Part shown: in pieces, positions 4,310-27,477 of the stretch | Numbering within the stretch: position 1 is the stretch's first letter | Layout: every line of letters starts with the position of its first letter | Origin: a virus | Taxonomy: Duplodnaviria > Heunggongvirae > Uroviricota > Caudoviricetes | IMG/VR virus record: IMGVR_UViG_650377940_000003 | Coordinates: 87,323 to 151,322 of that record | DNA length: 64,000 bases | Reading direction: 5' to 3' (one strand) | Notes under the pieces: generated by a model | The model's input: the letters and a program-made list of their open reading frames with translations, nothing else | What the model was told of the DNA's origin: nothing | Databases searched by the model: none | Translations under genes and position numbers: made by a program

Positions 4310-4328
4310 AAATATTTTTGAAAACCTA

Positions 4329-4357
4329 TTGACTTCTGTAAAGGTATCCTGTATAAT
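4329..4357 (+). promoter_or_regulatory. consensus sigma70/sigmaA promoter TTGACT-17-TATAAT overlapping an inverted copy of the phage motif
   Basis: TTGACT at 4329-4334, 17-nt spacer, TATAAT at 4352-4357; drives the MazF-like gene. Confidence 0.7.
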
Positions 4358-4400
4358 ATAGCTATGGAACGGAGCTACACTATTATAGAGGAGAAAGACT

Positions 4401-4820
4401 ATGGACAACAATATTGACCCAAAGGTCGGAGAGGTTTGGTTGGTTGATCTATCCAATGCGACAGGTCATCAGCAGCGCGGTATTCGACCGTTCGTTGTGA
4501 CGAGCAACAATAAGCGCAACTTCTTTAGTCCAACAATTAAAGGGAATCCGTTGTCTTCCAGAATATACAAGCGCTCTCCGGTTCATGTTCTACTCTCAAA
4601 GGAAGATTGTGATTTCCTAGAGGTTGATAGTATCGTTCTATGTGAAGAGACTGATACACTTAACAAAGGACAGTTCATTAAAAAACTTGGTGTCTTGTCG
4701 GAGCGTCAGATGAATATGATCGCAATGGCAAGATGCAAGGATGAACCGTTTTTGCTTGCAGCATTCCTGAGCGGCGTACAACATACCATGGAATTTCAGA
4801 ATTTTGCCGCATTTGCTTGA
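4401..4820 (+). CDS. MazF/PemK/Kid-family endoribonuclease toxin homolog (solitary)
   Basis: GEVWLVDLSNATGHQQRGIRPFVVTS matches Kid/PemK signature GEIWLV.LDPT.GHEQ.G.RP..IV; no antitoxin-like ORF adjacent. Confidence 0.65.
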   Translation: MDNNIDPKVGEVWLVDLSNATGHQQRGIRPFVVTSNNKRNFFSPTIKGNPLSSRIYKRSPVHVLLSKEDCDFLEVDSIVLCEETDTLNKGQFIKKLGVLSERQMNMIAMARCKDEPFLLAAFLSGVQHTMEFQNFAAFA

Positions 4821-4873
4821 TTTTTTATAAGGTTTAATGGTACACTACATATAATAAGAAGGAGTGTGCCACT

Positions 4874-5800
4874 ATGCTTACTGAAGAAAAAATCAAAGCT
4901 TTTGCCGAAAAGTATTCTGATAGAAGCGGTGAGTTTGTTGCATCGACGATGCGTCACGTCATGGATTACGAGGCCGAGCGTGGGTATGAGTTGTTTGACT
5001 TCACAAAAGATGATTTCGTAAAGATGTTTGCCAAATATAATTGGGTGAATTCGAGTCGTTCGTTTAAAAATGTGAAGTCAATAATCACAGGCTACATCAA
5101 AAGTGAAAACGAAACAAGCATGTATGATCTGGCTGACTTTTCAGAGAGCGATGTAAGCGCAGATGATATGTACAATGACAGTTATTTTGCGTCGGTTGAC
5201 GAATTTGTTGACTTCTTAAATAAGTACGAAGAGCCATATCAGATTCGTATGAACGTAATTGCTGTTTTGTACTGGATTGGTCTTACTTCCGATGAGATTT
5301 CTAATCTAACAATTAACGATGTGGATTTTGAATCTAATACCGTTCTTGATAAGACTGATGTTGACGCAAGGTTAATGGATATTATCAAGCAATGTTACGA
5401 GATGAAACAGTATGATGCCCCCAATAAGAGCGGTTATAGAACATTTTATGTCATGAATGGCGATTATATCCTACGCAAAACGAAGGATAAACCCGGTGTA
5501 AACAGTGATCCAAAGACGTCTATAATTTCAATTCATGTCTATTTTTCGAGGTTGAACGATATCCTCGAAAAAAGGCATCATTCAAAAACCTTAGATCAAA
5601 GATATTTAGCCAGAAATTGTGAGTATATCAAGGTTTATAACTACTGTAAAACTCATCCAAAATTTAATCTTGCAGAACTTAGTTTCGGAAATGGTAAAGG
5701 TCCTCTTGCGGACATTATCGGAAGAAAGTGCAGTAAAGTTGCCTATCTTAGTTTCCGGCAAGGATATAAAGGTTGGGTTGAATATTTCCATGAAAATTAA
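4874..5800 (+). CDS. hypothetical protein with tyrosine-recombinase box-I-like segment (likely non-catalytic)
   Basis: IRMNVIAVLYWIGLTSDEISNLTINDVDF resembles integrase core-binding/box I region; no clear RHRY. Confidence 0.25.
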   Translation: MLTEEKIKAFAEKYSDRSGEFVASTMRHVMDYEAERGYELFDFTKDDFVKMFAKYNWVNSSRSFKNVKSIITGYIKSENETSMYDLADFSESDVSADDMYNDSYFASVDEFVDFLNKYEEPYQIRMNVIAVLYWIGLTSDEISNLTINDVDFESNTVLDKTDVDARLMDIIKQCYEMKQYDAPNKSGYRTFYVMNGDYILRKTKDKPGVNSDPKTSIISIHVYFSRLNDILEKRHHSKTLDQRYLARNCEYIKVYNYCKTHPKFNLAELSFGNGKGPLADIIGRKCSKVAYLSFRQGYKGWVEYFHEN

Positions 5801-5833
5801 AAACAGGGGGCTTCGGCCCCTTCATTTTAACAT

Positions 5834-5856
5834 GCTAACTATATAACACAGGATAC
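5834..5856 (+). promoter_or_regulatory. phage conserved motif copy (ACTATATAACACAGGATAC)
   Basis: One of 7 copies of core TAWWYACAGGATAC; 16 nt upstream of RBS of the Pnkp-ligase gene. Confidence 0.6.
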
Positions 5857-5877
5857 CTATTAGAAAGGGAGATGCAG

Positions 5878-8091
5878 ATGAGAACACTTTTACTGTTCCG
5901 TGGAGCACCCGGTTGCGGGAAGTCCACCTATATTAAAGAGCATAATCTTGAGCAGTACGTATTGAGTGCTGATACACTTCGCCTTATGTGCCAGAGCGCA
6001 CAGGAAACACCTGATGGGCAGATGGAGATTTCTCCGCAGAATGATGATGTTGTATGGGAGATGCTTTTCAAACTGCTTGAGGTGCGGATGAGCCATGGCG
6101 AGTTTACTGTGATTGATGCAACGAATTCCAAGACGGTCGAAATGAATTGTTATAAGAATCTTGCAAAACAGTATCGTTATCGGATGTATGTTATTGATAT
6201 GACGGACCTTCCGATCGAGGAATGCAAACGAAGAAACGCTCAGAGAGAATGGCTAAAGCGAGTTCCTGAAGCGGCTATTGATAAGATGTACGCTCGGTTT
6301 GCTACTCAAAAAGTTCCTTCTGGCGTGACAGTTCTTCCTTCTACTACGGATGTGATGTCCGATTTGAACTACTGCCCGAATGACTTTAACCAGTGGAAAA
6401 AGATACATATCATCGGTGATATTCATGGCTGCTATACCTGCTTGAGTGAATACCTTGGTGAGATGAAGGACGACGAGCTTTATATCTTCGTTGGTGATTA
6501 TCTCGATCGTGGCATCGAAAACGTTGAGGTATTCAAGTTCTTGTGTGATGTTGTAAATAACAACCGCAAGAATGTGATCCTTTTGGAAGGGAACCACGAG
6601 CATTGGCTGAACAAGTGGGGGCATGATAAACCGGTTCAAAGTGAAGAGTTTGCAAACTACACTCGTCCGCAGCTCTTTAAAGCCGGTATTGACAAGAACA
6701 CTGCTCGTAAGATCTATTCCAGAGTCGGCCAGTGTGTCTACTTTGAGTATGATGGTAAGCGGTATTTCGTAAGTCACGGTGGTCTGAGCTATCTTCCTTA
6801 TTTTCTTCCGTTCGTGTCTGCGGATCAGATGATTAAAGGCGTAGGCCGCTATCCTGATATACTGACCGTGGCTGAGTCTTGGGAAAAGTCGATGCCGGAT
6901 AGCTATATTCAGATCTTCGGCCATCGAAATGTACAGGATGTTCCTATTGATATGGGTCATCGGTGCTACAATCTTGAAGGCAAAATCGAGTTTGGTGGAT
7001 ATCTTCGTTGTGTGGAGCTTGAACACGGTCAGCCTATCAAATGCGTAGAAACCAAGAATGATGTATTCCGAAAAGAGGAGCCAAAGACTGAAACTGCCGT
7101 TGAAATGAAAACTGAGTTCGATAACGCAGAACTTGTTAGTAAGATGCGTCAAAGCAAATATGTGTTTGAGAAGCGATTCGGAGATATTTCTTCTTTCAAC
7201 TTCTCTCGTGAAGCATTTTATAAGAAGCACTGGGATGAGGTTTCTACCAAAGCAAGAGGGTTGTTCATTAACACAAAGACGAATAAGATTGTAGCTCGAA
7301 GCTATGATAAGTTCTTTGCGGTTGATGAGCGGAATGAAACGAGAATTGGAAACCTACAGAACACTTTGAAGTTCCCGGTGACTGCATATCTAAAAGAGAA
7401 CGGATTTCTTGGTATCATTTCGTATGATGCAGAACAGGATGGTCTGTTCATTGCAAGTAAATCCACTCCTGATGGGCCTTTTGCAGATATGTTCCGAAAG
7501 ATTCTCATGGATACGACTTCTGATGAAGATCGTAAGAATCTGAAAGAAGTTGCAAAAGAGAATGGCTCCATCATCTTCGAGGTGATTGATCCTGTGAATG
7601 ATGCACATATCATCGAATATAAGAAACCGCACATTGTTTTGCTGGATATTATTGCAAATGATATGAATTTCAGTGTAATGGATTATGATGATTTGAAGCG
7701 TGTAGCCGAGAAGTGTCATCTGCAGATTAAGGAGAAGGTTAAAACCTTTGAGAACTGGAGTGAATTCTATCCTTGGTACGAAGAAGTCATGAACGAGAAC
7801 TATCTGCATCATGGTTTTGAACACGTTGAAGGCTTTGTTTTGCGAGACAGCAATAATTTCATGTTTAAGCTGAAGCTTCCGTATTATAAGCACTGGAAGT
7901 TCTTGCGTGGTGTCATGCAGAGCGTTCAAAAACGTGGCTATTATGAAAATACCGCAAAGTTGTTTACTGCCGAGGATAACCTGTTCTATGGTTGGATGCG
8001 TGAACAACGAGAGAAAGATCAAGAGTCTTTCTGCAAGAAGGGTATTATTCAGCTGCGGAATGAGTTCTACGCAAGTCAGCAGAAGAGCTAA
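5878..8091 (+). CDS. trifunctional polynucleotide kinase-phosphatase-ligase (Pnkp/CthPnkp-like RNA repair enzyme)
   Basis: N-terminal P-loop GAPGCGKST kinase; central calcineurin-type phosphoesterase GDIHGC...GDYLDRG...GNHE; C-terminal nucleotidyltransferase ligase motifs KENG (I), IIFEVID (III), EGFVLRD (IV), FKLKL (V). Confidence 0.7.
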   Translation: MRTLLLFRGAPGCGKSTYIKEHNLEQYVLSADTLRLMCQSAQETPDGQMEISPQNDDVVWEMLFKLLEVRMSHGEFTVIDATNSKTVEMNCYKNLAKQYRYRMYVIDMTDLPIEECKRRNAQREWLKRVPEAAIDKMYARFATQKVPSGVTVLPSTTDVMSDLNYCPNDFNQWKKIHIIGDIHGCYTCLSEYLGEMKDDELYIFVGDYLDRGIENVEVFKFLCDVVNNNRKNVILLEGNHEHWLNKWGHDKPVQSEEFANYTRPQLFKAGIDKNTARKIYSRVGQCVYFEYDGKRYFVSHGGLSYLPYFLPFVSADQMIKGVGRYPDILTVAESWEKSMPDSYIQIFGHRNVQDVPIDMGHRCYNLEGKIEFGGYLRCVELEHGQPIKCVETKNDVFRKEEPKTETAVEMKTEFDNAELVSKMRQSKYVFEKRFGDISSFNFSREAFYKKHWDEVSTKARGLFINTKTNKIVARSYDKFFAVDERNETRIGNLQNTLKFPVTAYLKENGFLGIISYDAEQDGLFIASKSTPDGPFADMFRKILMDTTSDEDRKNLKEVAKENGSIIFEVIDPVNDAHIIEYKKPHIVLLDIIANDMNFSVMDYDDLKRVAEKCHLQIKEKVKTFENWSEFYPWYEEVMNENYLHHGFEHVEGFVLRDSNNFMFKLKLPYYKHWKFLRGVMQSVQKRGYYENTAKLFTAEDNLFYGWMREQREKDQESFCKKGIIQLRNEFYASQQKS

Positions 8092-8208
8092 ATTAAAAAA
8101 TAGACATTTTATCGTGATTTTCGTTAGAATAATTAACGAAGTATAGTGATATTTCTTCCTCCGAAAATGCCCTGCGCGGGGCTGACAGCCGGGAAAGACC
8201 GGCAATAT

Positions 8209-8293
8209 GGGGATATGGTGAAATTGGCAGCCACGCTTGATTCAAACTCAAGTGTCGAAAGACGTATCGGTTCAAATCCGATTATCCCTACCA
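8209..8293 (+). tRNA. tRNA-Leu (anticodon CAA)
   Basis: Hand-folded cloverleaf: acceptor GGGGATA/TATCCCT, anticodon loop TTCAAAC, long variable arm, T-loop TTCAAAT, CCA encoded. Confidence 0.75.
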
Positions 8294-8494
8294 TGAAGAT
8301 TAGTTGTTCTAGCTCGTTCGGGGATTGGCCGTACATTGGCGACCGGAAAGACGTCACACCGGTAAAGGACGTCAAGCCAGACAAGAAGAGAAATAAGGTG
8401 TAAGCCGACTAGCTATCGGATAAATACTCTTCGGTTCGCCAGAAAACTAGAATGTAAAACGAATGGTTGGCTGTTTCTGATCTTCTTTTTATAT

Positions 8495-8577
8495 GCGCCC
8501 GTGGTGGAATCGCAGACACAGGAGACTTAAGATCTTCTGCCAGAGATGGCGTGCGGGTTCAAGTCCCGCCGGGCGCA
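8495..8577 (+). tRNA. tRNA-Leu (anticodon TAA)
   Basis: Acceptor GCGCCCG/CGGGCGC, anticodon loop CTTAAGA, long variable arm, T-loop TTCAAGT. Confidence 0.7.
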
Positions 8578-8584
8578 TTTATAT

Positions 8585-8660
8585 CTGGGCGTAGCGAAGT
8601 TGGTATCGCACCTGTTTTGGGAACAGGGGACCGCAAGTTCAAGTCTTGTCGCTCAGACCA
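8585..8660 (+). tRNA. tRNA-Pro (anticodon TGG)
   Basis: C1:G72 acceptor typical of tRNA-Pro, anticodon loop TTTGGGA, T-loop TTCAAGT, CCA encoded. Confidence 0.7.
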
Positions 8661-8748
8661 GTCCGAAAGGGCATGTAGAATTTTTCATTCACATTATTCC
8701 CAGCTCTCTGGAAACGGAGCAGTGTGACGTAGTAAGCTGGGTATATGA

Positions 8749-8819
8749 TGCGCCATCGCCAAGCGGTAAGGCAGAGGACTTTGACTCCTCCATCACAGGT
8801 TCGACCCCTGTTGGCGCAA
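8749..8819 (+). tRNA. tRNA-Gln (anticodon TTG)
   Basis: U1:A72 acceptor TGCGCCA/TGGCGCA, anticodon loop CTTTGAC, T-loop TTCGACC. Confidence 0.65.
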
Positions 8820-8824
8820 TTTAT

Positions 8825-8906
8825 GCGGATATGGTGGAATGGCAGACACGCCAGATTTAGGATCTGGTGCTTCGGCGTGTGGGTTCGATGCCCACTATCC
8901 GCACCA
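8825..8906 (+). tRNA. tRNA-Leu (anticodon TAG)
   Basis: Acceptor GCGGATA/TATCCGC, anticodon loop ATTTAGG, long variable arm, T-loop TTCGATG, CCA. Confidence 0.75.
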
Positions 8907-9007
8907 CGGTCATGAATCGTTGTTGTTCATGGTTGAACTCCTTTGACCACTATTATTCCCGGCTCGCCAGTGATGGTGCAGTAGTGCTTTGTAAGCTGGG
9001 TTCTCAT

Positions 9008-9082
9008 GCAGCGGTCGTACAACGGCTAGTATATCAGCCTTCCAAGCTGAGGATGAGGTTTCGACTACCTTTCGCTGCTCCA
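9008..9082 (+). tRNA. tRNA-Gly (anticodon TCC)
   Basis: Acceptor GCAGCGG/TCGCTGC, D-stem GTAC/GTAT, anticodon loop CTTCCAA, T-loop TTCGACT, CCA. Confidence 0.6.
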
Positions 9083-9264
9083 ATTTCGTATGGGTAGGGA
9101 TTTTAAGCGGTCAGATCCGGCTGCGCCTGTGCGAGATACCACCCCGAAAGGGGCTAACGAAATTATCCATGTACGTTATTCTCGGTTCGCTCGAAAGAGT
9201 ACAGCGTGCCTTTGCAAGCCGAGCATCCCAGCCTAGTGATGCCAGTTGCTAGGTTGGTTCTTAT

Positions 9265-9340
9265 GCGACTGTAGTTCAATTGGCAGAGCGTCAGATTTCC
9301 AATCTGAATGTTGCGGGATCATACCCCGTCAGTCGCTCCA
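9265..9340 (+). tRNA. tRNA-like, second Gly(TCC)-type with atypical T-loop (ATCATAC)
   Basis: Acceptor GCGACTG/CAGTCGC, D-arm GTTC..GAGC, anticodon loop TTTCCAA, CCA; non-canonical T-loop, so possibly a pseudo-tRNA. Confidence 0.4.
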
Positions 9341-9567
9341 CACGCAGCCCCTTACGCTGCACCGGTTACTCAGAGCCGAAAGAAACCTATATGTTACGAC
9401 ATGGTTGCCAAGAGTGATCATATTGGAACGCGACGTAGCTTGGATAGTGAGAATTAAATTCTGAGGTATACGGCTGGATAGCTTAATGGTAAAAGCGCTC
9501 GGAAACGCCGAGAGATGAGGTTCGATTCCTCCGCTGGCATCGCGCCGACGAAAGTCGGCGTTTGCAT

Positions 9568-9644
9568 GGGATAGTAGCTCAGTTGGTCAGAGCTGGCGGC
9601 TCATAACCGCTTGGTCGCGAGTTCAAATCTTGCCTGTCCCACCA
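9568..9644 (+). tRNA. tRNA-Met/Ile2/fMet type (anticodon CAT)
   Basis: Acceptor GGGATAG/CTGTCCC, D-loop TAGCTCAGTTGGTCAGAGC, anticodon loop CTCATAA, T-loop TTCAAAT, CCA. Confidence 0.75.
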
Positions 9645-9747
9645 GCCCGATAGGGCATACATAAAATCTGCTAGAACTTTTGTTTTATAAGCGAATGAAT
9701 AATATGACGTTAATACGTCTATTATTTTTCGCTTATTTTCGGAGTTT

Positions 9748-9768
9748 TAGCTATGTAACACAGGATAC
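9748..9768 (+). promoter_or_regulatory. phage conserved motif copy (TAGCTATGTAACACAGGATAC)
   Basis: Copy of TAWWYACAGGATAC 12 nt upstream of AAAGGAGG RBS of the methyltransferase gene. Confidence 0.6.
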
Positions 9769-9779
9769 TAAAAGGAGGA

Positions 9780-11256
9780 ATGAAAACTGAAGCATTACGG
9801 AGATATCACACAACTCCATGGATGGCAGATTGAACCGGTTTCCTGTATCACAGGAGGCAGTCCCTGCCAAGATCTGAGTCAAGCCGGTAAACGTGAAGGT
9901 TTGGCTGGTGAACGCTCTGGATTGTTCCTTGAAATGATTCGTGTGATTACAGAAATGAGGGAGGCCACTAATGGAGAATATCCAAAATTCGCAATCTGGG
10001 AAAATGTCAGAGGAGCTTTCAGCTCAAGCAAAGGTGAAGACTTCAGATGTGTGTTGGAAAGATTTGCACGCATTGTCGAGCCAGACGTTTCAATTCCTCG
10101 ACCTTCAGGAAAGAACGGAAAGTGGGCAAAATCTGGAGCGATTTCCGGTAATGGATGGTCTCTTGCATGGAGATTGTTCGACGCTAAATACTGGGGAGTC
10201 GCCCAGCGTCGCCAGAGAATCGCGCTTGTCATGGATTTTGGAGGACAACGTGCCTCAGAAATTCTATTTGAGCGCACGAGCATGTCAGGGGATTCTTGTG
10301 AGAGCATCCCGGCGTGGAAAACCTTTGCCCGAACTCCTGAAGCAAGCGTTGCTGGATATGATCGAATGGTGGAATCCAGGAACTCTGTCACAGGTGGTGC
10401 AGAAAGTGAAGGAACAAGAAGGTCTGGAAGAGAAGGAATTGGACGAGTATTGGAGTCAGACCATCGAGAGACTTCGACTCGATGCACAGAACCTGCAGCC
10501 TACACTCTAAAAATCCGTTCTGGATGTGAAGGTGGCGGTAAAGGCGCTCTTGTTCAAACTGAATTGAGCGCAACGATTTCTACGTTACAAGACCAGACGC
10601 TGATTTGCTTGGCAGAAAATCCCTCCTTACATAATTTAAAACAAAATATTTCGCCGGTGGTGTTTGAGAGCCACAGTCAGGACGCTCGATACACTCAGCA
10701 GAGTGATACAAGTCCGACTTGTACTGCTCAGTGGGGAACTGGTGGCAATAATATGCCACTGGTCATTGAGAAGAAAGCCTTTGCGATGCAACGCATTGGT
10801 GAATACAAGGAAAGTGAACAGGCTAGTACGATGAAATCTCGTGACTACAAGGACGCTACTGACCTGATTACAGAGAAAGAAACGAAGAATCTACGATGGA
10901 TTGTTCGCCGTTTGACTCCTTTGGAGGATGAACGGCTTCAGGGGTTCCCTGATGGATGGACAGATATCGGTGACTGGATTGATGAGAACGAAAAGAAGCA
11001 TAAAACTTCTGACGCAGTTCGTTATAAGGCACTCGGCAATTCAATCGCATTACCGCAATGGTATTGGATTTTTCAGAAGATGAAATCGTATATCGGTGAG
11101 AATCCTACTCTTGGTAGCCTCTTCGATGGGATCGGCGGCTTTCCGCTAGTATTTCAAAGCACATATGGTGAAGGTACTGCCATTTGGGGGTCAGAAATTG
11201 ATAGCTTTTGCGTTGCAGTAACTAAGAAGCATTTTCCAGAAAAGCAAAGAGGATAA
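9780..11256 (+). CDS. C5 cytosine DNA methyltransferase, circularly permuted (motif order III/IV-VI-VIII-TRD-IX-X-I-II); ATG at 9780 is 1 nt out of frame (A4 run 9783-9786)
   Basis: Frame +1 from 9784: KLKHYGDITQL...GGSPCQDLSQAG (IV), ENVRGA (VI), QRRQRIALV (VIII), RRLTPLEDERLQGFPDGW (IX), KALGNSIALP (X), then LFDGIGGF (I) and SEID (II) before stop at 11256; RBS AAAGGAGGA precedes ATG 9780; deleting one A gives M-KLKHYGDITQL. Confidence 0.6.
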
Positions 11257-11578
11257 AAATGGGAGCTTTTATTGCAAGACAGCCTAACGGTTTGCTGTGT
11301 CGGTTTTCTTCGGTGGTCGATTGTGTCACCGATTACAACATGACCGAAGAAGAATATATCGAGATGTGTGCTGAAAAGGCACGAAAAGAAGCACGAGATG
11401 TTCTTGACCATTATATTAAGCCGTTTGAAATGGTTGACAGGTGTTTCTTCCCGAACAACATGACAATCGAAGAACACAAGCGGATTATGAAGGAAATGGA
11501 AAAGCCCGTTGACAAAGCAACTCATATTCCGTAATAAGAAAATCTCATAAAAGGCCAATTCAAACAAGAGGTGACACG

Positions 11579-11809
11579 ATGAATACCAAAATTCCTATCA
11601 ATGTAACCATTGATTCCGGTTCCTTGAGTCTTCCGGCGAGTCCAATTTTCCAGAAGGAAAAGAGCACATATCTCTGTCCGTTCTGTGTGACGAAGCTGGA
11701 GAAGCTTGAACCGAAATGTCCAGAGTGTCAACATAAAATGGATTGGGGTGTATGGATGGATAAGAATGCAAAGCACAATTATGCATTTGCTGAAAGTGGT
11801 GTGTTATGA
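11579..11809 (+). CDS. zinc-ribbon protein
   Basis: CPFC...CPEC pairs; RBS. Confidence 0.3.
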   Translation: MNTKIPINVTIDSGSLSLPASPIFQKEKSTYLCPFCVTKLEKLEPKCPECQHKMDWGVWMDKNAKHNYAFAESGVL

Positions 11810-12174: not shown

Positions 12175-12473
12175 GGTTGAATATAGATTTCTTCCAACGG
12201 CGTAAGACTCAGCTTGAAGATGCACTTCTTTTGAAAAATCAGGCGGTCGATATGCTTGATTATCTAAAAACGCACTGCGTCAACAATGACCAGTATTGTG
12301 CAATTCGAGATTACATTGAAGAAGCTGCGAAGATTCTGGAGAGTGACCTCGAATACGCAAACAACAAGCTGCAGTCAGCATTCAGACCTAAGTATGGTCG
12401 GAACAGTAGACTGACTCGTGCTCAATCTAAGATGTTCCGTGATAGAGAGTATTAAAAATGGGGTGATGCCGCT

Positions 12474-12686: not shown

Positions 12687-12831
12687 CGGCGAGTGCCGTA
12701 TGAAATATAAGCCATCAATAAACCAGACGGAGGATAACATATAGAATGAATAGTGCATGAATTGATTTAAGACGATAACAGAAAACATAAGTGATTATCA
12801 ATGAAACAAAATTACATAAAGGAGACTTGAT

Positions 12832-13935: not shown

Positions 13936-13945
13936 TTTTTAGTCT

Positions 13946-13966
13946 TAGCTAAGTAACACAGGATAC
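13946..13966 (+). promoter_or_regulatory. phage conserved motif copy (TAGCTAAGTAACACAGGATAC)
   Basis: Copy of the motif in the intergenic region before the Sak4-like gene, followed by TATCGTA/TACGATA inverted repeat. Confidence 0.55.
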
Positions 13967-14056
13967 TTATAAAAGAAAAGTTTTATCGTATTTACGTCAA
14001 AATAAATATCGTAGGTACGATAAATAATTTTGATAAAAACGGAGGAATTTACATAT

Positions 14057-18456: not shown

Positions 18457-20195
18457 ATGTAAAACTCTGGAAGGGGAGTAGGAACGACCTATCAGACCCG
18501 ATTGGAACGATTATGGAGAACAGAGGGGTTAAGGATTATAAGATCTACATGAACCTAGATGATTCTTGTCTGAATTCTCCGTGGGAACTGGACAACATGG
18601 AAGATGCTGTCCGGCTGTTGAACAAACATATCTGGAATAAGTCTATTATCTCTATCCTTGTAGACTGTGATGTGGATGGATTCACAAGTGCTTCAATGAT
18701 GTTTCAGTATTTGAAGACGATTGGTTATTTTGGAAAAATCAATGTTCTGCATCATAGTGGCAAAGAACACGGACTCTCTAAAGAAATTGAAGTTCCACCT
18801 GAAACTACCTTGCTGATTATTCCTGATGCTGGCAGCAATGATGTTGAGCAGTGTAAGGAACTTCGTGATAATGGCATCGATATTCTGATTCTTGACCATC
18901 ACATCTGCGACAGAGAGAATCCTTACGCAGTAATCGTCAATAACCAGAATGGTACATATCCTAATAAGGAATTGTCTGGCGCTGGCGTGGTGTATAAGTT
19001 CCTTCAGGCTGTTGATGAATATAATTGGACTGATGTTGCAGACAGGTATCTTGATCTAGTGGCCGTCGGAAATATCGGTGACGTCATGGATATGCACTCA
19101 CACGAGACAAAGCGCCTTTGCACGAAAGGTCTTGCGAGAATTGTGAATCCAATGATTTGCGCTCTGGTTGAAGCGAATAGCTTCAATATTAAGGGTGACC
19201 CGACTATCAATGATGTTCAGTTCTACATCGTTCCGATGATGAATGCACTGATTCGTGTTGGTTCATCCGAGCAGAAGAAGCGGATGTTCCGTGCAATGGT
19301 CGGTGAGGAACAGACATTCCAGTACACTCCGACTCGTGGCAAGAATGCCGGTGTCACGATTGACGAGACTCTGGCACAGCATGTAGCTCGTGAGTGTTCG
19401 TCTTGCAAGTATCAGCAAAACAAGACCAAAGACAAGGCTGTCGCAGAGCTTCAAAACTGGATTTCTAAGTATGGAGCGGACAGAAGTAAAGTTTTGTTTT
19501 GTAATTCCACTGGCATTCTGGACAGTAATTTGACTGGCGTTGTAGCAATCAAGTTGGCTGAAATGTATGGTAAACCTTGCGTACTACTTCGAGAGATGGC
19601 CTGCCCTGAAGAGCCAGACGAGAATCAAGAGTATTTTGGTGGTTCAATGAGAAATCCTGACGGTTCTCCGATTGAAAGTTTAAAAGAGTTTTTGATGAGC
19701 ACCGGAGATTTTGAGTCGGTTCTTGGTCACGATAATGCCGCTGGCGTAAAAATCAAGAAAAAAAACGTACCAAAGGCGATTGCGGATTGCAATGAACTGC
19801 TTAAAGATGTCACGATGAGTAAGGCGATCGTGGTCGATTTTGATTTTGACTATAGTAAGTTGACTGTTGCATTGCCGAAGACCATGTATGAAATGCATAA
19901 AATCTGGGCACAGGGAATCTCCGAACCGTATTTCTACATTAAAAACATTCCGCTGATTCATAGTGGATGTGCTCCGATGGGCAAGAATGGTAATATGTGG
20001 AAATATTCTGATGAAGAAAAAGGCATTGATTTTGTGTGCTTTGCTGATAATGGCCGGATGATTGGCTGGATCAACAATGACTTTTATGGTGATCAGGAAG
20101 AAAAATACATCAATGCTGTATGCCGGTTATCTTTAAATCAGTACGGGAACAAAGTAACTCCGCAGGCGCAGATTGTTGATTTTGAGGTGATTTGA
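18453..20195 (+). CDS. DHH-family phosphoesterase, RecJ-like ssDNA exonuclease
   Basis: DHH motifs DCDVDG, IIPDAGSND, ILDHHI; ATGA start/stop overlap with primase. Confidence 0.6.
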   Translation: MNVKLWKGSRNDLSDPIGTIMENRGVKDYKIYMNLDDSCLNSPWELDNMEDAVRLLNKHIWNKSIISILVDCDVDGFTSASMMFQYLKTIGYFGKINVLHHSGKEHGLSKEIEVPPETTLLIIPDAGSNDVEQCKELRDNGIDILILDHHICDRENPYAVIVNNQNGTYPNKELSGAGVVYKFLQAVDEYNWTDVADRYLDLVAVGNIGDVMDMHSHETKRLCTKGLARIVNPMICALVEANSFNIKGDPTINDVQFYIVPMMNALIRVGSSEQKKRMFRAMVGEEQTFQYTPTRGKNAGVTIDETLAQHVARECSSCKYQQNKTKDKAVAELQNWISKYGADRSKVLFCNSTGILDSNLTGVVAIKLAEMYGKPCVLLREMACPEEPDENQEYFGGSMRNPDGSPIESLKEFLMSTGDFESVLGHDNAAGVKIKKKNVPKAIADCNELLKDVTMSKAIVVDFDFDYSKLTVALPKTMYEMHKIWAQGISEPYFYIKNIPLIHSGCAPMGKNGNMWKYSDEEKGIDFVCFADNGRMIGWINNDFYGDQEEKYINAVCRLSLNQYGNKVTPQAQIVDFEVI

Positions 20196-20196
20196 T

Positions 20197-20544
20197 ATGG
20201 GAAATTGGAAACGTGCTATCGCCATCGACTTTGATGGCACTCTCTGTGAAAATAATTACCCTGATATCGGTGAGCCAAATTGGAATGTCATTTATCAAGC
20301 AATTCAGGAACAGAAACACGGTGCTGGTCTGATTCTCTGGACTTGCCGTGAAGGAAAGCTTTTGTATGATGCAATGGAGGCTTGCTTTGATTGGGGCATT
20401 CAGTTTGATGCAATCAATGAGAGTCTTCCTGAGTGGAAAGAGCATTTTGGCACTGCTCCTAGAAAGGTTGTAGCTGATGAATATTGGGATGATAAGGCTA
20501 AGGTTGTAAAAAATGGAGAGTTGATTGACAATGCTGATGCCTGA
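20197..20544 (+). CDS. small HAD-like hydrolase
   Basis: HAD motif I AIDFDGTL. Confidence 0.3.
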   Translation: MGNWKRAIAIDFDGTLCENNYPDIGEPNWNVIYQAIQEQKHGAGLILWTCREGKLLYDAMEACFDWGIQFDAINESLPEWKEHFGTAPRKVVADEYWDDKAKVVKNGELIDNADA

Positions 20545-20716
20545 ACAGTTTGAAGCAGACGTTAAAGAATTTATCGCAGAATGCCAAAGCCATCCAGTGA
20601 TAGATTTATCAAAAGATGATCCATGCGAAGGATGTCGCTTTGAGGACTTTTGCGATAGGTTTTATCCGGGCGATGGTAGCACATGGCATTGGCGAGTTTA
20701 TGAGAGGGGTGAATGA

Positions 20717-21478
20717 ATGGTTTACATTACAGGCGATATTCATGGCGATTTTAATCGTCTCTTAGAGTTAAATAAATTTTGCATTAAACACAATCTTGGA
20801 AAGAATGATTGGATTATCTGTCTTGGTGATGTTGGTCTAAACTATTATGGTAAGGATAACATCAACGAATGGAGAGTTAAGACCATTGCTGCGGACATCC
20901 CTGCGAATTTATTCTGTATTCATGGAAATCACGAACGCCGCCCGTCTCGTAAGGATGGTTATAGGACAAAGGAAATCAGTGGAGATATTTGTGGTAAGGT
21001 GTGGCATGATTCACATTATCCCAATCAGTATTTTGCTATTGATGGCGAAGTTTACCAGATTCTTGCTGATAGGGAAATTCTGAACTGTCTTGTTTGCGGC
21101 GGAGCATATTCTGTAGATAAATATTATCGGTTGGAACGTGGATGGAACTGGTGGCCGGACGAACAGCCTAATGAGAAGACTAAGAAAAAGATCTGGAATA
21201 TTACACATGACCCTCAAATCGATGATATTGATGTTATGCTCACGCATACCTGTCCATTTCGGTTCATTCCAACTGAATTGTTTATCGGTGGTATTGATCA
21301 AAGCACAGTAGACCAGTCAACTGAAATATTCTTTGATAATATATACGAATGTTATCCTAACGATTGTAAACCATTCTGGTACTTCGGCCATTTCCATGGC
21401 AACAAGTACACCGATGACTATGTGATGCTTTTCGACGATATTATTAAGTTTGGAGATAAGGTGAATACGAATGAGTGA
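20717..21478 (+). CDS. calcineurin-like metallophosphoesterase
   Basis: GDIHGD...GDVG...GNHE motifs. Confidence 0.6.
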   Translation: MVYITGDIHGDFNRLLELNKFCIKHNLGKNDWIICLGDVGLNYYGKDNINEWRVKTIAADIPANLFCIHGNHERRPSRKDGYRTKEISGDICGKVWHDSHYPNQYFAIDGEVYQILADREILNCLVCGGAYSVDKYYRLERGWNWWPDEQPNEKTKKKIWNITHDPQIDDIDVMLTHTCPFRFIPTELFIGGIDQSTVDQSTEIFFDNIYECYPNDCKPFWYFGHFHGNKYTDDYVMLFDDIIKFGDKVNTNE

Positions 21479-21744
21479 ATATCATGTGAGCTGTGGTATG
21501 TTTGGTATTTACGCAGGAACTGTTAAAAAGAATGGAACCGAATGGAAGGATAAAACTCGTGTCACGGATGAAGCTATCGAGGCAGTTCGTGATTGGCTTC
21601 TTTCTGAAGCTCAGTTCAACAATAGAACTTTTGGTGGATACACATGGACAACAAAGGACGGTAAGACTGTAACTTTGAGAGTGTCTATCGAAGATAAGGA
21701 GCAGACAGAATGAATTTAAATAGTATGAAAGGTGGTGTTGCCTG

Positions 21745-24700
21745 ATGAGTAGCAGTTTACATATGCACTCATACTTTTAGCTTGCTCGATGGGTTCTCTT
21801 CTCCTGAAGAAAATCTAAAAAGAGCATCGGAACTTGGCTTGAAAGCTATTGCCATTACGGAACATGGTGAGGTGACAAGCTGGCCGTATTACTCAGAACT
21901 AAAAGACAAGTATCCTGACGTAAAGCTTCTTTATGGTATCGAGGCATATGAGTGCGAGGATAGGGAAGTAAAGGACAAGAACAGTAAATACTGGCATCTG
22001 ATCATCATCGCAAAGAATGAGGCTGGTCGTCAGACGGTTAATCGCTTATCTACACTCGGTCATCTTCATGGCTTTTATAGCCGTCCTCGTATCACAAAAG
22101 AGGATATCGCTAAGGAAGATACGAATAATTTGATTATCCTGTCTGCTTGTTTGGCGAGTAGACTGTCCAAAACGGATGATTATGACACTTGTGTCAAGCT
22201 AGTTCAAGAGTATAAGAGTTTATTCCCTCACTATTATCTTGAGGTTCAGGCTCATGCAAATAGTGAACAAGCAAAATACAATCAGAAAATCATGCGGTTG
22301 GCAAACGACACTCATACAAAAGTAGTCGTCACAAACGATGTTCATGCTGCCACAAAAGAAGCTCTGTATTATCAAGACTACTTTCTGAGAATTGCTCATG
22401 ATACAGAAACTGCCGCAGAAATCTACGAAGAATGCTACTTTATGTCTCGCAGGGAGCAACATGAAGTCCTTGACGGTCAGATTGGATATGATGCGGCAGA
22501 ATGGTGTATCAACAATACCGATGAGATTGCTGACCTATGTGATTATGTGGATATGCCTTGGCACGAACCTGAACTTCCCAAAATCGAGATTCCTCCACAG
22601 TATTCCAACTCAGCAGCTTACTTAAAAGACCTTGTGAAAGAGGGATGGAAGAAACGCGGCATTGACAAGTTTGATGTAGAAAAGCAGAAGATCTATCGTA
22701 AGCGTGTTGATGACGAGCTGTTTGTCATTGAGAAGAAAGACTTCTGTGATTATTTTTTGATTCTGGTTGATTACATCAACTGGTGTAAGAAAAATGATGT
22801 CATTGTTGGCCCTGGTCGTGGTTCTGCCGCTGGTTCACTTGTATGTTACCTGATTGGCATTACGCAACTTGATTCCATCAAATACGAGCTTGATTTCGGA
22901 CGATTCCTTACCATTGAACGAAAAGACCTTCCCGACGTTGATGTAGATGTCAGTGATCGTGCCAAGGTTGTCGAGTATCTGACACGGAAGTACGGTGAAG
23001 ATCGAGTAGTTCAGGTTATGAATATCGTGTACACCACTCCGGTCACTTCGATTCAGGATGTTGGCAAGGTGCTCGGTTTCCCGTATGCTGAGATTAGAAA
23101 AATCAGCGAGAAATTCGTTCAAAAGACATGGAAGGATTGTCTTGAAGCAAATCCAGAAGTGGCTGAGAATCCGAGATACAAAGAACTGCTTGATATTGCA
23201 GAGCACATCAATGGTCGCCCACGAGGGTATGGTATCCATGCTGGCGGTGTTATTGTCTGCCGACATCCTTATTATGAGTATATCGGTATCCGACACGGTG
23301 CCGATGGAGAGCACGTTATCTCTGTTGATAAGGTGATGGACGAGAAAATTGGACTTGTTAAGTTTGATATTCTTGGCGTTGCATCGCTTGTGGCTATTGA
23401 TGAGGCAAAGCGTGAGGACAATATTCCAGACTGGGAAATTGACATTAACAATCCTGAGTTTGAAAATGACAAGGCATCCTATGATTTGATTTGTTCTGGC
23501 CGGACAGACAATCTATTCCAGATTGAGTCGTCTGGTATGAAGGATCTGGTTGCACAGCTTCAGCCGAGGTCGATTGAGGAGCTGTCAGCATTGATTGCTC
23601 TTTATCGTCCTGACGCAATGCCGTCTATTCCTACATACGTTGATTGCAAGTATCATCCAGAACACATTCATTATTTCCATCCTGATATGGAACCAATTTT
23701 CCGCAGCACCTATGGCGTGAACATCTATCAGGAACAGAGTATGAAGCTCACAAAGGTCTTTGGTGGCCGAAGCGATGCTGGTGCTGATAGAATGCGTAAG
23801 TGCTTAGCAAAGAAGAAACCTGAGAAGGTCAAGGAAGAGGTAGAACTTCTTCACGATGAAATTCTTGCAAATGGATACGATAAAGCAACCGCCGAGTATA
23901 TTTGTAACGAGTTGTCAACGAAGGGCGGCTACGGCTTCAACGCTAGTCATTCTCAAGCATACGCCGTCATCTGTCTTCAGACCGCATACTTGAAAGCCCA
24001 TCATCCGCTTGCGTTCTTTAAGGCTATGCTGAACCTGAATAAAGCAAAGGTCGGTAAGGTCAATAAGATTATGGTGGACGCACGCAGCTTTGATATTCAG
24101 ATTCTTCCTCCGAGTATCAATCGTTCCGGCATGGATTTTACTGTGTCAAATGGTAAAATCCTATTTGGCTTGTCTGCTATCGGTGGTATTGGCAATACAC
24201 TTGCTGAGACTATCATTGCAGAACGAGATAGGAATGGAAAATTTAAGGGACTTGATGATTTCACGAGTCGTGTTCGTGCAACGAAAGCGCAGATCATTGC
24301 GTTGGTCAAATCCGGTGCGATTCCTACAAAAAACAAACGAATATTCTTGGAAAAGTACATTGCCAGCGGTTTGGAACAATCTGAGTTTAAACCAGTCAGT
24401 ACACTTCCTACCAAGGCAGTTTTGCTGAGTAAGTGGGATATTGATACAGAGCATTATAAGGTTGGTAAGAAGGTTGATAAAGAAACCGTCCTACGAATCT
24501 ATAATGAAAAGCGCCGTGTCGTACATGAAACTGAAAAACTCAAGAAAAAGGAAGCGTACATGGCCGAGCAGTCAGAGAAGTATTTGAAGGACGAGCAATT
24601 CTGGGAGTTCCAGACGTTGCAGACGTTTATTATCGATAAGAATCCGTTTGAAAAGGCATACGAATACATTAAGGATTTCTCTGAGCTTGAAACTGGTGAC

Positions 24701-24961
24701 TCCTGTGTACTGGTTGGTATTATCGCAAAGATTCAAAAGAAGAAAACAAAGACTGGTATGCAGTTTGCGTTTGTGAATCTGTATTCTGGCGATGGTATCA
24801 TTGAGTTGACAGTATGGCCGAGAATCTTGTCAGATTATCAGGATTTGATTGTAAAGGGAAGTCAGGTAGCTGTGCTTGGAAAGAAGGAAGATGAATCACA
24901 CGTTATTGCAAACGACTTCAAACCTTACAAGCAGTGGCTACATGATAGAGAGATAGCGTAA
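21745..24961 (+). CDS. dnaE: DNA polymerase III alpha subunit (DnaE-type); N-terminal 12 codons (MSSSLHMHSYF) out of frame because of an extra T in T4 run 21775-21778
   Basis: PHP start HMHS.YFSLLDG split across frames; GPGRGSAAGSLVCYLIGIT palm motif; 1059-aa main ORF 21782..24961; RBS GAAAGGTGGTG before ATG 21745. Confidence 0.85.
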
Positions 24962-24973
24962 GAGGGTTATAAA

Positions 24974-27304
24974 GTGGCAGATAAGAAATTTAATGAAAAT
25001 ATGATTCGTTGCTACATCAGGATAAAACGAGTCTTTTATCCGAAAGATGGGAGGGAGGTGGAGCCCGGCGGCTTCGCCACTTTCTCTGCCGAGGTGGTAA
25101 AAGTCAAGCAGGGAAATCCTATCATGAGTCGATATAGTGACCTCCGACTGAAGGGCAATGTCCCTAGTCTTGATATGAATAAAACTTATTCGTTCTGTGG
25201 TGAGTATGTTCATCATGAAAAGTTTGGTGATCAGTACAAAATCATCTACATGAATGAGTTTCAAGAGATCACTGACCCGGAAGAACAAAAAAGCTTTCTC
25301 CGTTTTATTTTGACCGATCATCAGTTTGAGATGCTTTATGAAGCATTCGATAATCCGTATGAAGTTATCAAGAATGGTGACATCAAGGCTCTTTGTACTA
25401 TTAGCGGTATTACGGAAGGTCGAGCACAAAAGATCATTGACTCTTTTGAACGCAACATTGATAACAGTGAAGCGTACACAAAACTGATTGAGTACGGTCT
25501 GACTCCCAGTGCTATTGAAAAGCTTGTTCGTCAGTATCACGGTGCAGACATTCTGGTAAAAAAGATTGAGGAGAATCCTTACGTCCTGATTGATGATGTG
25601 TATGGTATCGGCTGGAAAAAAGCTGACGCTATTGCTTTGAATATGGGCTTAAAGCACAATTCGCAATTTAGAATCGAAGCTTACGTCATGCATTTTCTTG
25701 CCGCTCGTGCCGAAGAAGGTAACTCTATTATCCCGGCAAACCAGACAATCAATAGCTGTATTAAGGAACTTGATTTGAACGAGGGTGATCAAGAAGTCAT
25801 CAAAAGGGCACTTTTCCATTTACATGATGTCCGTGAAACGCTTTGGTGGAGTGATGACCGTCAGGAATTTGCTTTAACTAGAGTGTGGAATCTTGAAGAT
25901 AAAATCGCAAAGGAAATCAAGCGACTGGCTGATGCACCTGTTGAGCCGATTGGTCGAAACATGGATGCTGCAATCAATGAAGCCGGGAATGCGCTTGGCA
26001 TCGAGTATACTGAGGAGCAAAGAGATGCTATTAAAAAGGTATGCTCTAGCAACGTCTGTATCTTAACAGGCTACGGCGGAACTGGTAAAAGTACCGTTGT
26101 CGCTGGTGTTTTAAAGGTTCTTCGTGGCAAGTCTTTCGCTCAGACTGCACTTTCTGGTCGTGCCGCAGCTCGTATGCAGGAGATTACTGGTCAGGATGGA
26201 AAGACCATTCACCGTCTTCTTGGCTACGACATCGAGAATGGTGGTTTCATCCATAACAAGGACAATCCTCTTGAAGAAGACATTATTATTCTGGATGAGA
26301 CCTCTATGGTTGGAGCTCAGTTATTCTATGACTTGATTCAGGCAATCGAGACCGGCAAGCGATTCATCATGATTGGTGATGACGGCCAGCTTGAGAGTAT
26401 TGGTATGTGTAACATCTTCAAGGATATGCTTGCATCTAAGGTTGTTCCTGTGGCTCGTTTGACTAAGATCCATCGTCAGGCAGCTAAGTCTGCAATTATC
26501 ACGGAAAGCATTAAGGTTCGTAACGCTACGCAGTTGGTGCCTTATGGCTGGGCTGGTAGTGAGATTCGTGGTGAACTTCGTGATTTGGAGCTTGATATCT
26601 ATAAGGATGCAAGTGAGTCGTTCAACCATATCATCAATCAGTACCGTACCTTATATAATAAGGTGGGGAATGATAGTGCGAAGATTCAGATTGTACTTCC
26701 ACAGAAGCTTCGTGGCAGTATTTGCACCTACGAAGTAAACAATGCTATTCAGGAGATTGTAAATCCGAGTCGTGGTCAGGCGGAAGCAAAGGTCACTATC
26801 TATGGAGATGGCAAGGACAGAGAATATACTTTGCGTGAGGGCGATCAGGTCATCATCAACAAGAACAACTACGAGCTTCACACATACAATCTCAAGACAA
26901 AGAAAAAGGAAGAGAAGTGTCCGGTGTTCAACGGAAACCGTGGCATTATCCGAAAGATTGAGAGCAGCTTTATTCTGGTTGATTTTGACCAGTGGGGCAC
27001 GATCTTTATTCCACATTATTTTGGTGGGAATAACATCTGGGCAACGCTTGAACTTGCCTATGCTCTGAGTTGTCATAAACTGCAGGGCAGTGAGGCTCCG
27101 TATGTGATTGTTGGCATGGACAATTCTGCGTACCTGATGTTGACGAGAGAATGGCTCTATACGGCCATCACTCGTGCCAAGAAGTATTGTGTGATTTGTG
27201 CCGAAACTCATGCTCTTGATCGGGCTGCAAAGACTTCGAGAGTTCCATATAAGCGGACGTTCTTGAAGGAATTTTTACGGAAAGAATTTGCAGAAAAGCA
27301 TTGA
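24974..27304 (+). CDS. RecD/Dda-like SF1B DNA helicase with HhH region
   Basis: Motifs GYGGTGKST (I), IILDETSMV (II), IMIGDDGQLESIG (III), IHRQ (IV), VGMDNSAYLMLTREWLYTAITRAKK (VI). Confidence 0.7.
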   Translation: MADKKFNENMIRCYIRIKRVFYPKDGREVEPGGFATFSAEVVKVKQGNPIMSRYSDLRLKGNVPSLDMNKTYSFCGEYVHHEKFGDQYKIIYMNEFQEITDPEEQKSFLRFILTDHQFEMLYEAFDNPYEVIKNGDIKALCTISGITEGRAQKIIDSFERNIDNSEAYTKLIEYGLTPSAIEKLVRQYHGADILVKKIEENPYVLIDDVYGIGWKKADAIALNMGLKHNSQFRIEAYVMHFLAARAEEGNSIIPANQTINSCIKELDLNEGDQEVIKRALFHLHDVRETLWWSDDRQEFALTRVWNLEDKIAKEIKRLADAPVEPIGRNMDAAINEAGNALGIEYTEEQRDAIKKVCSSNVCILTGYGGTGKSTVVAGVLKVLRGKSFAQTALSGRAAARMQEITGQDGKTIHRLLGYDIENGGFIHNKDNPLEEDIIILDETSMVGAQLFYDLIQAIETGKRFIMIGDDGQLESIGMCNIFKDMLASKVVPVARLTKIHRQAAKSAIITESIKVRNATQLVPYGWAGSEIRGELRDLELDIYKDASESFNHIINQYRTLYNKVGNDSAKIQIVLPQKLRGSICTYEVNNAIQEIVNPSRGQAEAKVTIYGDGKDREYTLREGDQVIINKNNYELHTYNLKTKKKEEKCPVFNGNRGIIRKIESSFILVDFDQWGTIFIPHYFGGNNIWATLELAYALSCHKLQGSEAPYVIVGMDNSAYLMLTREWLYTAITRAKKYCVICAETHALDRAAKTSRVPYKRTFLKEFLRKEFAEKH

Positions 27305-27329
27305 CAATTATGTGCGTATCCTGTATAAT
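27301..27329 (+). promoter_or_regulatory. consensus sigma70 promoter TTGACA-17-TATAAT overlapping an inverted motif copy
   Basis: TTGACA 27301-27306, TATAAT 27324-27329; motif GTATCCTGTATAATATAGTT at 27317-27336. Confidence 0.65.
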
Positions 27330-27341
27330 ATAGTTACAAAA

Positions 27342-27360
27342 AGTCTCCGCCCCGGAGGCT
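27342..27360 (+). terminator. short GC hairpin between inverted motif copies
   Basis: AGTCTCCGCCCCGGAGGCT stem-loop; weak T tract. Confidence 0.35.
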
Positions 27361-27375
27361 TAAAATTCTCTCTTT

Positions 27376-27464
27376 AACTATATAATACAGGATACGGGAA
27401 AGAAATGGCTTGCTCGTAACGACAAGCCTTTCTTTATTAGCTATAACTATATAACACAGGATAC
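27376..27464 (+). promoter_or_regulatory. two direct motif copies (27376-27395 and 27438-27464) flanking a tiny ORF/hairpin (GGCTTGCTCGTAACGACAAGCC) upstream of the ligase gene
   Basis: AACTATATAATACAGGATAC and TAGCTATAACTATATAACACAGGATAC; hairpin followed by TTTCTTTATT. Confidence 0.55.
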
Positions 27465-27477
27465 GCAAGGAGGCTTT

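Follow-up and report, generated by a model that had tools for sequence, protein, structure and literature searches.

A 21-bp asymmetric element as the probable operator of an SPbeta-type master repressor in a Faecalibacterium prausnitzii prophage

SPbeta-type repressor systems and the Faecalibacterium element

The master repressor of the Bacillus phage SPbeta, MrpR (also YopR or SroF), has the fold of a tyrosine recombinase, shows no recombinase activity and binds the element SPBRE at ten promoter regions (PMC10516654); SPBRE was verified as the MrpR site by chromatin affinity purification sequencing and electrophoretic mobility shift assay (Kohm et al. 2023, PMC10516654). The SroF protein of phi3T encircles an asymmetric 26-bp box as a monomer and reads 24 bp of it (bioRxiv 10.1101/2025.11.27.690993). 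Here, an asymmetric, non-palindromic and sharply bounded 21-bp element, TARCTAWRTWAYACAGGATAC, is described from a 64,000-nucleotide stretch of a Caudoviricetes record (IMG/VR IMGVR_UViG_650377940_000003, positions 87,323 to 151,322; the whole stretch is referred to as the window). Based on analogy with SPbeta and on the modelled fold of its putative binder, we consider it likely (a probability of about 0.75) that the element serves as operator for the master repressor of the prophage and is the counterpart of SPBRE, the repressor probably being the product of the open reading frame (ORF) at 4874–5800. The SPBRE/MrpR(SroF) control scheme is already known; new here are the sequence specificity and, neither of them described for SPbeta, an orientation rule and a pairing of copies at 38–40 nt.

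In the SPbeta genome (NC_001884), SPBRE (CAAATACAAAWAATATGTATA) occupies the spacer in TAGACA-17-TATAAT promoters at yonP, yorE, yorM, yorZ and yosX, lies just upstream of the -35 hexamer at yonX1 and aimR, and stands just past the promoter, 0–5 nt before the ribosome-binding site (RBS), at yonX2, yopM and yopV. The same three placements (in the promoter spacer, upstream of the -35, and after +1 abutting the RBS) were found for the 21-bp element. Both are large temperate phages that encode a YonO-type RNA polymerase and share a Sak4-helicase-primase-RecJ-PolIII alpha module, whose order in the window mirrors yorG-yorL. Each carries about 10–12 asymmetric copies per genome, in early intergenic regions only, and in each the repressor gene (here the candidate) belongs to an operon headed by a site. 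Site positions also correspond: in SPbeta they precede yonP-yonO, yorE (the Sak4-to-PolIII module) and yorM (after PolIII), and in the Faecalibacterium prophage the RNA polymerase gene, the Sak4-like module and the ligase gene that follows PolIII and RecD2. The two systems differ in that the element sequences are unrelated, that copies are paired at 38–40 nt in the prophage, a pairing not described for SPbeta, that the prophage host is a gut anaerobe of the Clostridia, and that the repressors share only ~13–16% identity in structural alignment. No resemblance of TARCTAWRTWAYACAGGATAC to SPBRE or to the phi3T box CAGTAATTTTATTTTTATTCTTAATG was found, which points to a different specificity, as expected of a distant allele.

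Monomeric reading of an asymmetric box, as by SroF, fits the non-palindromic 21-mer. In SroF the core-binding and catalytic-like domains encircle the site, and allele-specific repressor variants occur among relatives; its box is an A-tract-rich 26-mer, whereas the prophage box has 21 bp and a GC-containing 3' half. Lambda-type CI/Cro control offers a second comparison, with operators that overlap the -35 and -10, an autoregulated repressor (proposed here, as set out below) and heteroimmune relatives that swap repressor and operator jointly. Lambda-type operators, however, are palindromes bound by dimeric helix-turn-helix proteins in one or two control regions, whereas the prophage has about a dozen dispersed, asymmetric early sites.

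Copies, classes and geometry of the element

Exact matches to TARCTAWRTWAYACAGGATAC occur seven times in the 64-kb window, five direct and two inverted. All seven copies reported in a first-pass annotation of this DNA were thus present, within 1–6 nt of the positions it gave, whereas the consensus it had written, TAWWYACAGGATAC, has zero matches in the window, was evidently mis-transcribed and is replaced here by the 21-mer. The edges were set by aligning the flanks of core copies, and beyond the 21 bp the information content drops away in either direction (376 distinct copies of the lineage). Sites with 1–3 mismatches were absent from the window (0.02 expected in dinucleotide shuffles). The core ACAGGATAC was found eight times against 0.32 expected; the eighth, at 53743–53751 on the minus strand, consists of the core alone, within a GC-rich host ORF (52846–54861) and with the rest of the motif missing, and is therefore taken as a chance match. 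The motif is genuine, strongly non-random and conserved.

Two classes of copy were distinguished by the middle of the element, which reads ATAACA, GTAACA or GTAATA in class 1 and ATTATA in class 2. By exact protein match the window belongs to Faecalibacterium prausnitzii SL3/3, in which ORF 4874–5800 is FPR_23110; its positions 1–48.2 kb are the right-hand portion of a large prophage, and host DNA lies beyond, starting with GroEL at 48875. The copies and the features around them are as follows.

4329–4357, plus strand: sigmaA promoter TTGACT-17-TATAAT, driving the operon of PemK and the candidate repressor; its spacer and -10 are motif copy 1
4344–4364, minus strand: motif copy 1, class 2, inverted, TAGCTATATTATACAGGATAC
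4401–4820, plus strand: PemK/MazF-like toxin gene, the first gene of the operon (PF02452, 2.1e-19)
4874–5800, plus strand: MrpR/SroF-like integrase-fold repressor candidate FPR_23110, proposed motif binder (MrpR_N_CB, fold, T138 at catalytic Arg I)
5805–5821, plus strand: terminator-like hairpin 3' of the candidate repressor gene
5836–5856, plus strand: motif copy 2, class 1, direct, 10 nt 5' of the RBS of the Pnkp-RNA ligase gene (start 5878)
9748–9768, plus strand: motif copy 3, class 1, 3 nt 5' of the C5 methyltransferase RBS (CTG start 9787), after the tRNA array and a hairpin at 9706–9719
13946–13966, plus strand: motif copy 4, class 1, 12 nt past the SSB-like stop codon and 90 nt before the start (14057) of the Sak4-like ATPase gene, head of the replication module
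27301–27329, plus strand: sigmaA promoter with perfect hexamers, TTGACA-17-TATAAT; motif copy 5 supplies its spacer and -10
27316–27336, minus strand: motif copy 5, class 2, inverted
27343–27359, plus strand: leader hairpin 1, GTCTCCGCCCCGGAGGC, in the 38-nt spacer of copies 5 and 6
27375–27395, plus strand: motif copy 6, class 1, 38 nt past copy 5
27407–27428, plus strand: leader hairpin 2, terminator-like, with T tracts on either side
27444–27464, plus strand: motif copy 7, class 1, 3 nt 5' of the RBS of the ATP-dependent DNA ligase gene (27478–28809)

In a test for sigmaA hexamers at 16–18-nt spacing, the two class 2 copies of the window gave 12/12 and 11/12 matches on the opposite strand; both inverted copies overlap consensus sigmaA promoters, as had been claimed. 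No -35 was found on the direct copies, the middles being TATAAC, TGTAAC or AGTAAC. The TATAAC previously ascribed to the direct copies holds for two of the five; the other three read TGTAAC, AGTAAC and TATAAT. Distances from the direct copies to the RBS were as described earlier, including the 90 nt before the Sak4-like start, and the layout of the putative attenuator region at 27300–27480, with promoter, hairpin, copy, hairpin, copy and ligase gene in succession, is real and also kept in relatives.

Relatives were gathered by a pattern scan of IMG/VR with the motif, which returned at least 113 loci, all on human-gut contigs of mostly 70–140 kb. The carriers are ~130-kb human-gut phages related to SPbeta, and about 600 copies with up to three mismatches were present among the loci fetched. 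Over the first 886 kb, 169, 72, 10, 9 and 0 copies were counted at 0, 1, 2, 3 and 4 mismatches, a fall to zero that marks the element as discrete. Compared by megablast with the phages in GenBank, the region matched short fragments only. Between phages the upstream context could be identical and the downstream gene cassettes different, with the motif retained.

Class 2 copies make up about one quarter of the total; all are inverted and embedded in a sigmaA promoter, and nearly all have no gene downstream in their own orientation. In the first set, 60/60 had a TTGACA-like -35 (at least 5/6 matches) at 17 ± 1 nt on the opposite strand. Read as its reverse complement, GTATCCTG-TATAAT-ATAGYTA, the class 2 element covers a host-type promoter from its spacer through the -10 to +1. 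Class 1 copies, with an RBS and start codon 10–40 nt downstream, have no TTGACA-like -35 and no sigmaA -35/-10 of their own.

The classes are combined in two arrangements. In the first, of which 27316–27395 in the window is an example, a class 2 promoter is followed by 38–40 nt with a small hairpin and T tract, a direct copy and an RBS. Inverted pairs were spaced at 38–40 nt (118, 46 and 8 cases, 172 in total), with one further pair at 37 nt, and the 38–40-nt spacing spans three unrelated spacers; convergent pairs numbered zero in the loci surveyed. In the second, which relatives carry ~3.6 kb upstream of the gene for the phage RNA polymerase, a TTGAAT-17-TATAAT promoter is bracketed: its -35 is directly adjoined by an inverted copy, and a direct copy begins 9 nt past the -10 (about +3 to +23) and is followed by an RBS. 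As a speculative reading, monomeric integrase-fold repressors might act in orientation-coded pairs at 38–40 bp that bracket or follow a promoter, which would be a repression geometry undescribed for MrpR/SroF.

The direct copies end 2–10 nt before the RBS, and the PemK/MazF gene adjoins two copies, as might be expected if the motif acted at the RNA level, whether as a conserved 5' leader, a processing site (for example of the adjacent MazF-like toxin) or a translation signal. We regard this as highly improbable: inverted copies end at the predicted +1 and would not be transcribed in the needed sense, Rfam at gathering thresholds found tRNAs only, the element itself folds into no conserved secondary structure, and its distance to the RBS ranges from 3 to 90 nt (~75 nt in contig L281).

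The candidate repressor and its sister-lineage allele

ORF 4874–5800 is flanked by copy 1, part of the promoter that heads its operon, and by copy 2, past its terminator. The Pfam family MrpR_N_CB matched 32/42 members of the protein family, gathered down to ~20% identity (best 1.1e-15), and a 76%-identical homologue scored 27.7 bits against a curated cut-off of 27. A first AlphaFold model, based on close homologues only, had a predicted local distance difference test (pLDDT) score of 64.7; rebuilt with distant homologues, it reached 91.7. With the latter model, the top seven Foldseek matches in the PDB were SroF–DNA, SroF–Sar, YopR and MrpR structures, ranging from 5.7e-8 to 2.4e-6, whereas Cre, XerA and other true recombinases followed from 6e-4. 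The best match was SroF of phi3T (PDB 9rd5; E 5.7e-8, template modelling score 0.59). The position of catalytic Arg I, the only catalytic residue placed with confidence, is occupied by T138. On this modelled fold, ORF 4874–5800 probably encodes an MrpR/SroF-family integrase-fold protein that lacks the first catalytic arginine of recombinases and serves as the prophage's repressor. The first-pass annotation had named this recombinase-like ORF as a candidate binder, a proposal to which the predicted SroF-like fold, T138, the placement of the gene and its divergence in a sister lineage (below) all lend support.

A recombinase-like protein could also act on the copies as recombination sites, of an invertible segment or shufflon, or as the ends of a small mobile element. 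Inverted 21-bp repeats (4344 and 5836) do flank a 1.5-kb segment encoding the protein, and 27316–27395 is an 80-bp inverted pair. With catalytic Arg I missing, and with hundreds of contigs showing the copies fixed at orthologous positions between genes, this explanation appears extremely improbable. Inversion of the PemK–repressor segment was rejected: one orientation relative to the flanks was found in 29/29 loci, and Arg I is absent (T138).

The PemK/MazF-type toxin gene (4401–4820) is co-transcribed with the candidate repressor gene and has no recognisable antitoxin beside it. Since the host MazEF system is what the repressor operon and arbitrium system of SPbeta and phi3T work through, the presence of a PemK/MazF toxin gene next to the candidate repressor gene may be a parallel that matters.

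Four metagenome contigs (L277 and L281–L283) are syntenic with window 2.4–11 kb and define a sister lineage. RlaP is 85% identical there, the next ORF 74%, PemK 94% and the methyltransferase 91.5%, and the integrase-fold protein just 36%. At two orthologous positions TAAGTATAGTATACAGAATTT and GTAGTATAGTAAACAGAATTT replace TARCTAWRTWAYACAGGATAC; TAAGTATAGTATACAGAATTT is inverted within an unchanged TTGACA-17 promoter geometry, and GTAGTATAGTAAACAGAATTT is direct, past the same terminator. The sister motif is changed at C4, T9, G17, A20 and C21, of which C4, G17, A20 and C21 are near-invariant and T9 more variable among the 376 distinct copies. At the sequence level, this divergence of repressor and motif together is the signature of a heteroimmune repressor–operator swap. 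The variant motif was found in IMG/VR as chance singletons only, and P0080, sought to enlarge the sister lineage, was absent from IMG/VR and the JGI metagenomes.

Several observations weigh against an operator read by this protein. Its sequence similarity is marginal: the MrpR_N_CB match of the ORF 4874–5800 protein itself was 6e-4, hhalign against YopR was insignificant, and phmmer and profile searches of PDB sequences returned generic tyrosine recombinases only, MrpR not among them, so that the link to MrpR/SroF comes from Pfam MrpR_N_CB and the fold. In the sister lineage, ORF 3983–4309 (108 aa, no family match) is likewise replaced, by an unrelated 105-aa ORF (L281:9116–9433), and co-variation therefore does not single out the integrase-fold protein; at the methyltransferase site in L281, no recognisable variant motif was seen. 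SPBRE has one constant orientation to the gene, whereas the in-promoter and upstream copies of the prophage are inverted relative to the downstream ones. Finally, no sigmaA promoter could be recognised in the 160 nt upstream of the four solo direct sites (before Pnkp, the methyltransferase, the Sak4-like ATPase and the RNA polymerase gene), two or three of which come after terminator-like hairpins, and this leaves the transcription of these genes unexplained. Read-through may be enough, or the direct copies may themselves harbour a promoter function that went unrecognised; the latter is the main rival to the operator reading, though an unlikely one.

The replacement of ORF 3983–4309 in the lineage with the variant motif also brings in a different regulator, either this allele-specific ORF or an unseen helix-turn-helix protein, as the one whose operator the element might be; that the MrpR/SroF assignment rests on a predicted fold is a further point in its favour. 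We hold this to be very unlikely. The small ORFs have no Pfam or PHROGs match and no DNA-binding signature, small repressors typically bind palindromes as dimers whereas the motif is asymmetric, and a monomeric integrase-fold reader of 24–26 bp has a solved precedent. ORF 3983–4309 has a sigmaA-like promoter of its own (TTGACG-16-TATAAT, 3913–3940) that is kept in the sister lineage. As a second allele-specific gene beside the repressor, it is possibly a cognate antirepressor.

The phage RNA polymerase, neighbouring features and the proposed switch

Outside the window, the phage family encodes a 927-aa YonO-like single-chain RNA polymerase with the fold of multisubunit polymerases and RNA-dependent RNA polymerases (Pfam RdRP, 3.7e-15). 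The gene (L051:4907–7690; position 10001–12781 in L114–L193) was found in at least 226 contigs, motif-carrying ones included. The protein shares 39% identity with its counterparts in Clostridium phage c-st and Enterocloster phages, and 24.6% with SPbeta YonO. A direct copy of the motif lies ~30 nt upstream of the polymerase start codon in 70/70 full-length loci, its end boxes conserved and its middle variable. No motif was found in the ~20 kb downstream of the gene in 70 plus 72 contigs, nor at 27.5–48 kb of the window, and the total comes to seven copies in the window and about five around the RNA polymerase operon. SPbeta YonO transcribes the late operon only, from a single start site upstream of yonK, and the YonO promoter sequence is unknown (PMC5467207). 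No SPBRE was found upstream of yonK in SPbeta. The motif thus precedes the polymerase gene, is missing from the ~20 kb downstream and has no counterpart before yonK, which argues that the polymerase gene is a member of the motif's regulon, not its reader.

These observations bear most directly on the possibility that the direct copies are promoters of a phage system, read either by the YonO-like polymerase or by the host enzyme aided by a sigma factor or activator from the phage, with the inverted copies being a by-product or interfering with early sigmaA promoters. Besides the polymerase itself, the form of the element (contiguous, asymmetric, 21 bp, always co-oriented with the downstream gene when near an RBS) would suit such a role, and some promoter activity seems to be needed, since copies often follow a terminator-like hairpin with no sigmaA promoter between. 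The promoters of T7, T3 and SP6 are similarly contiguous, asymmetric and sharply bounded, of ~19–23 bp, and stand at the heads of gene clusters past terminators. They are, however, always co-oriented, precede the genes served by the phage enzyme, late ones included, and lie outside host-type promoters, three points that fail in the prophage. Here about one quarter of copies are inverted, always in consensus sigmaA promoters, and one direct type sits at +3 of a sigmaA promoter; the ~20 kb without motif is where the late operon should begin, and the single late promoter of SPbeta YonO has no SPBRE. The motif also diverges along with the immunity cassette (the sister-lineage polymerase was not seen). 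No sigma factor was found among the ~30 window ORFs scanned, small ORFs not being exhaustively covered. On balance, promoters of a phage system are an unlikely explanation.

The first-pass annotation had listed a phage-specific promoter, a sigma-factor site and a conserved leader beside an operator. The first three are unsupported, with ATTATA copies lying in sigmaA promoters and the motif standing before the polymerase gene and not downstream of it, whereas the operator option is borne out by the sigmaA-promoter geometry, the SPbeta parallel, the SroF-like predicted fold and the co-divergence in the sister lineage. A combination of the two roles can be envisaged, in which the 21-mer is a repressor operator and, in direct orientation, also the initiation site of the YonO-like polymerase. 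After induction the polymerase would then boost transcription of its own gene and of the early modules from sites that are insulated by terminators and have no sigmaA promoter. This is speculative and, in our estimate, quite unlikely; if true, a promoter would be defined for the first time for the family of YonO polymerases.

The polymerase gene is preceded by an operon with an Ant-type antirepressor homologue (L123:8444–9136). Enterocloster phage PMBT24 (L278/L279), whose polymerase is 39% identical, has an SPbeta-like layout of RNA polymerase, HU-like protein and terminase, and its PolIII alpha and RecD-like genes are separated by one that resembles a sigma factor gene. A search of this phage for an analogous element turned up a single strong repeat, TTCAATTCGTAAAGTAAAA, which is present in six copies at gene ends beside terminators and could not be interpreted.

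The prophage genes in the window include RlaP, PemK, the recombinase-like ORF, Pnkp-RNA ligase and eight tRNAs; the C5 methyltransferase, SSB-like protein, Sak4-like ATPase, helicase, primase-like protein, RecJ, PolIII alpha and RecD2; and the ATP-dependent ligase, ThyX, NrdD, FolD and an integrase (46996–48216). RlaP (2454–2888), of the RNA-repair-pathway Pol beta family, a 739-aa kinase-phosphatase-RNA ligase fusion, Pnkp-Rnl (5878–8091), and the tRNA array at 8209–9644, with three Leu, one Pro, one Gln, two Gly and one Met genes, together form an RNA-repair kit that may counter anticodon nucleases. The methyltransferase (9787–11256) has an apparent CTG start at 9787, which is GTG in relatives, and the mechanical ORF list begins it at TTG 9901; translation from CTG 9787 reads LKHYGDITQLHGWQIEPVSCITGGSPCQDL, which places a PCQ motif inside the first 30 residues. 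Between copy 4 and the Sak4-like start, at 13985–14031, a palindrome of 16 bp, TATCGTAGGTACGATA, is accompanied by a half-site related to it, TATCGTATTTACG; this could be the site of a second regulator or an origin feature. Relatives are without this ~45-nt insert, and their Sak4-like gene starts 45 nt past the motif.

In the ligase leader RNA (27336–27485; minimum free energy -34.8 kcal/mol, z-score -2.4), the 5' arm GUCUCCGC can pair alternatively with CGGAGGC in hairpin 1 or with the ligase RBS, AAGGAGGC, and may form a translational or attenuation switch. Mobile insertions were seen in relatives: RecD2 has 1097 aa in L088 (751–4044) against 776 aa here, owing to an insert of ~320 aa; a methyltransferase ORF is fused to HNH and helix-turn-helix domains in L073 (3741–5651); and an insertion sequence-type transposase lies in the late region of L205 (11341–12495).

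For the favoured reading, an operator of the master repressor, the following mechanism is proposed. By analogy with SroF, a repressor monomer would clamp each asymmetric box. Because the inverted copies form the spacer, -10 and +1, repressor bound at class 2 sites would occlude RNA polymerase from the -10 and spacer of strong sigmaA promoters; as the promoter at 4329–4357 with copy 1 drives the repressor's own operon, this would imply autoregulation. The direct copies head early modules, namely RNA repair, the methyltransferase, replication, the ligase and the YonO-like RNA polymerase gene. At these sites, the four solo copies included, we infer that bound repressor would either block initiation (at +3) or form a roadblock to read-through into the early module. 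Once repressor activity is lost, the modules for RNA repair, methyltransferase, replication and ligase would open together with the polymerase gene, and the phage polymerase, once made, would transcribe the late genes.

If this reading is true, the SPbeta-type lysogeny switch extends from soil Bacillus to widespread ~130-kb prophages of the gut commensal Faecalibacterium prausnitzii. It would yield an explicit operator sequence, a candidate repressor (FPR_23110) and a natural allele pair with altered specificity, together with a predicted early regulon of RNA repair, tRNAs and methyltransferase, replication, ligase and phage RNA polymerase. A second, divergent protein–DNA pair would become available for how the integrase fold reads DNA, and prophage induction and immunity in Faecalibacterium prausnitzii would become directly testable.

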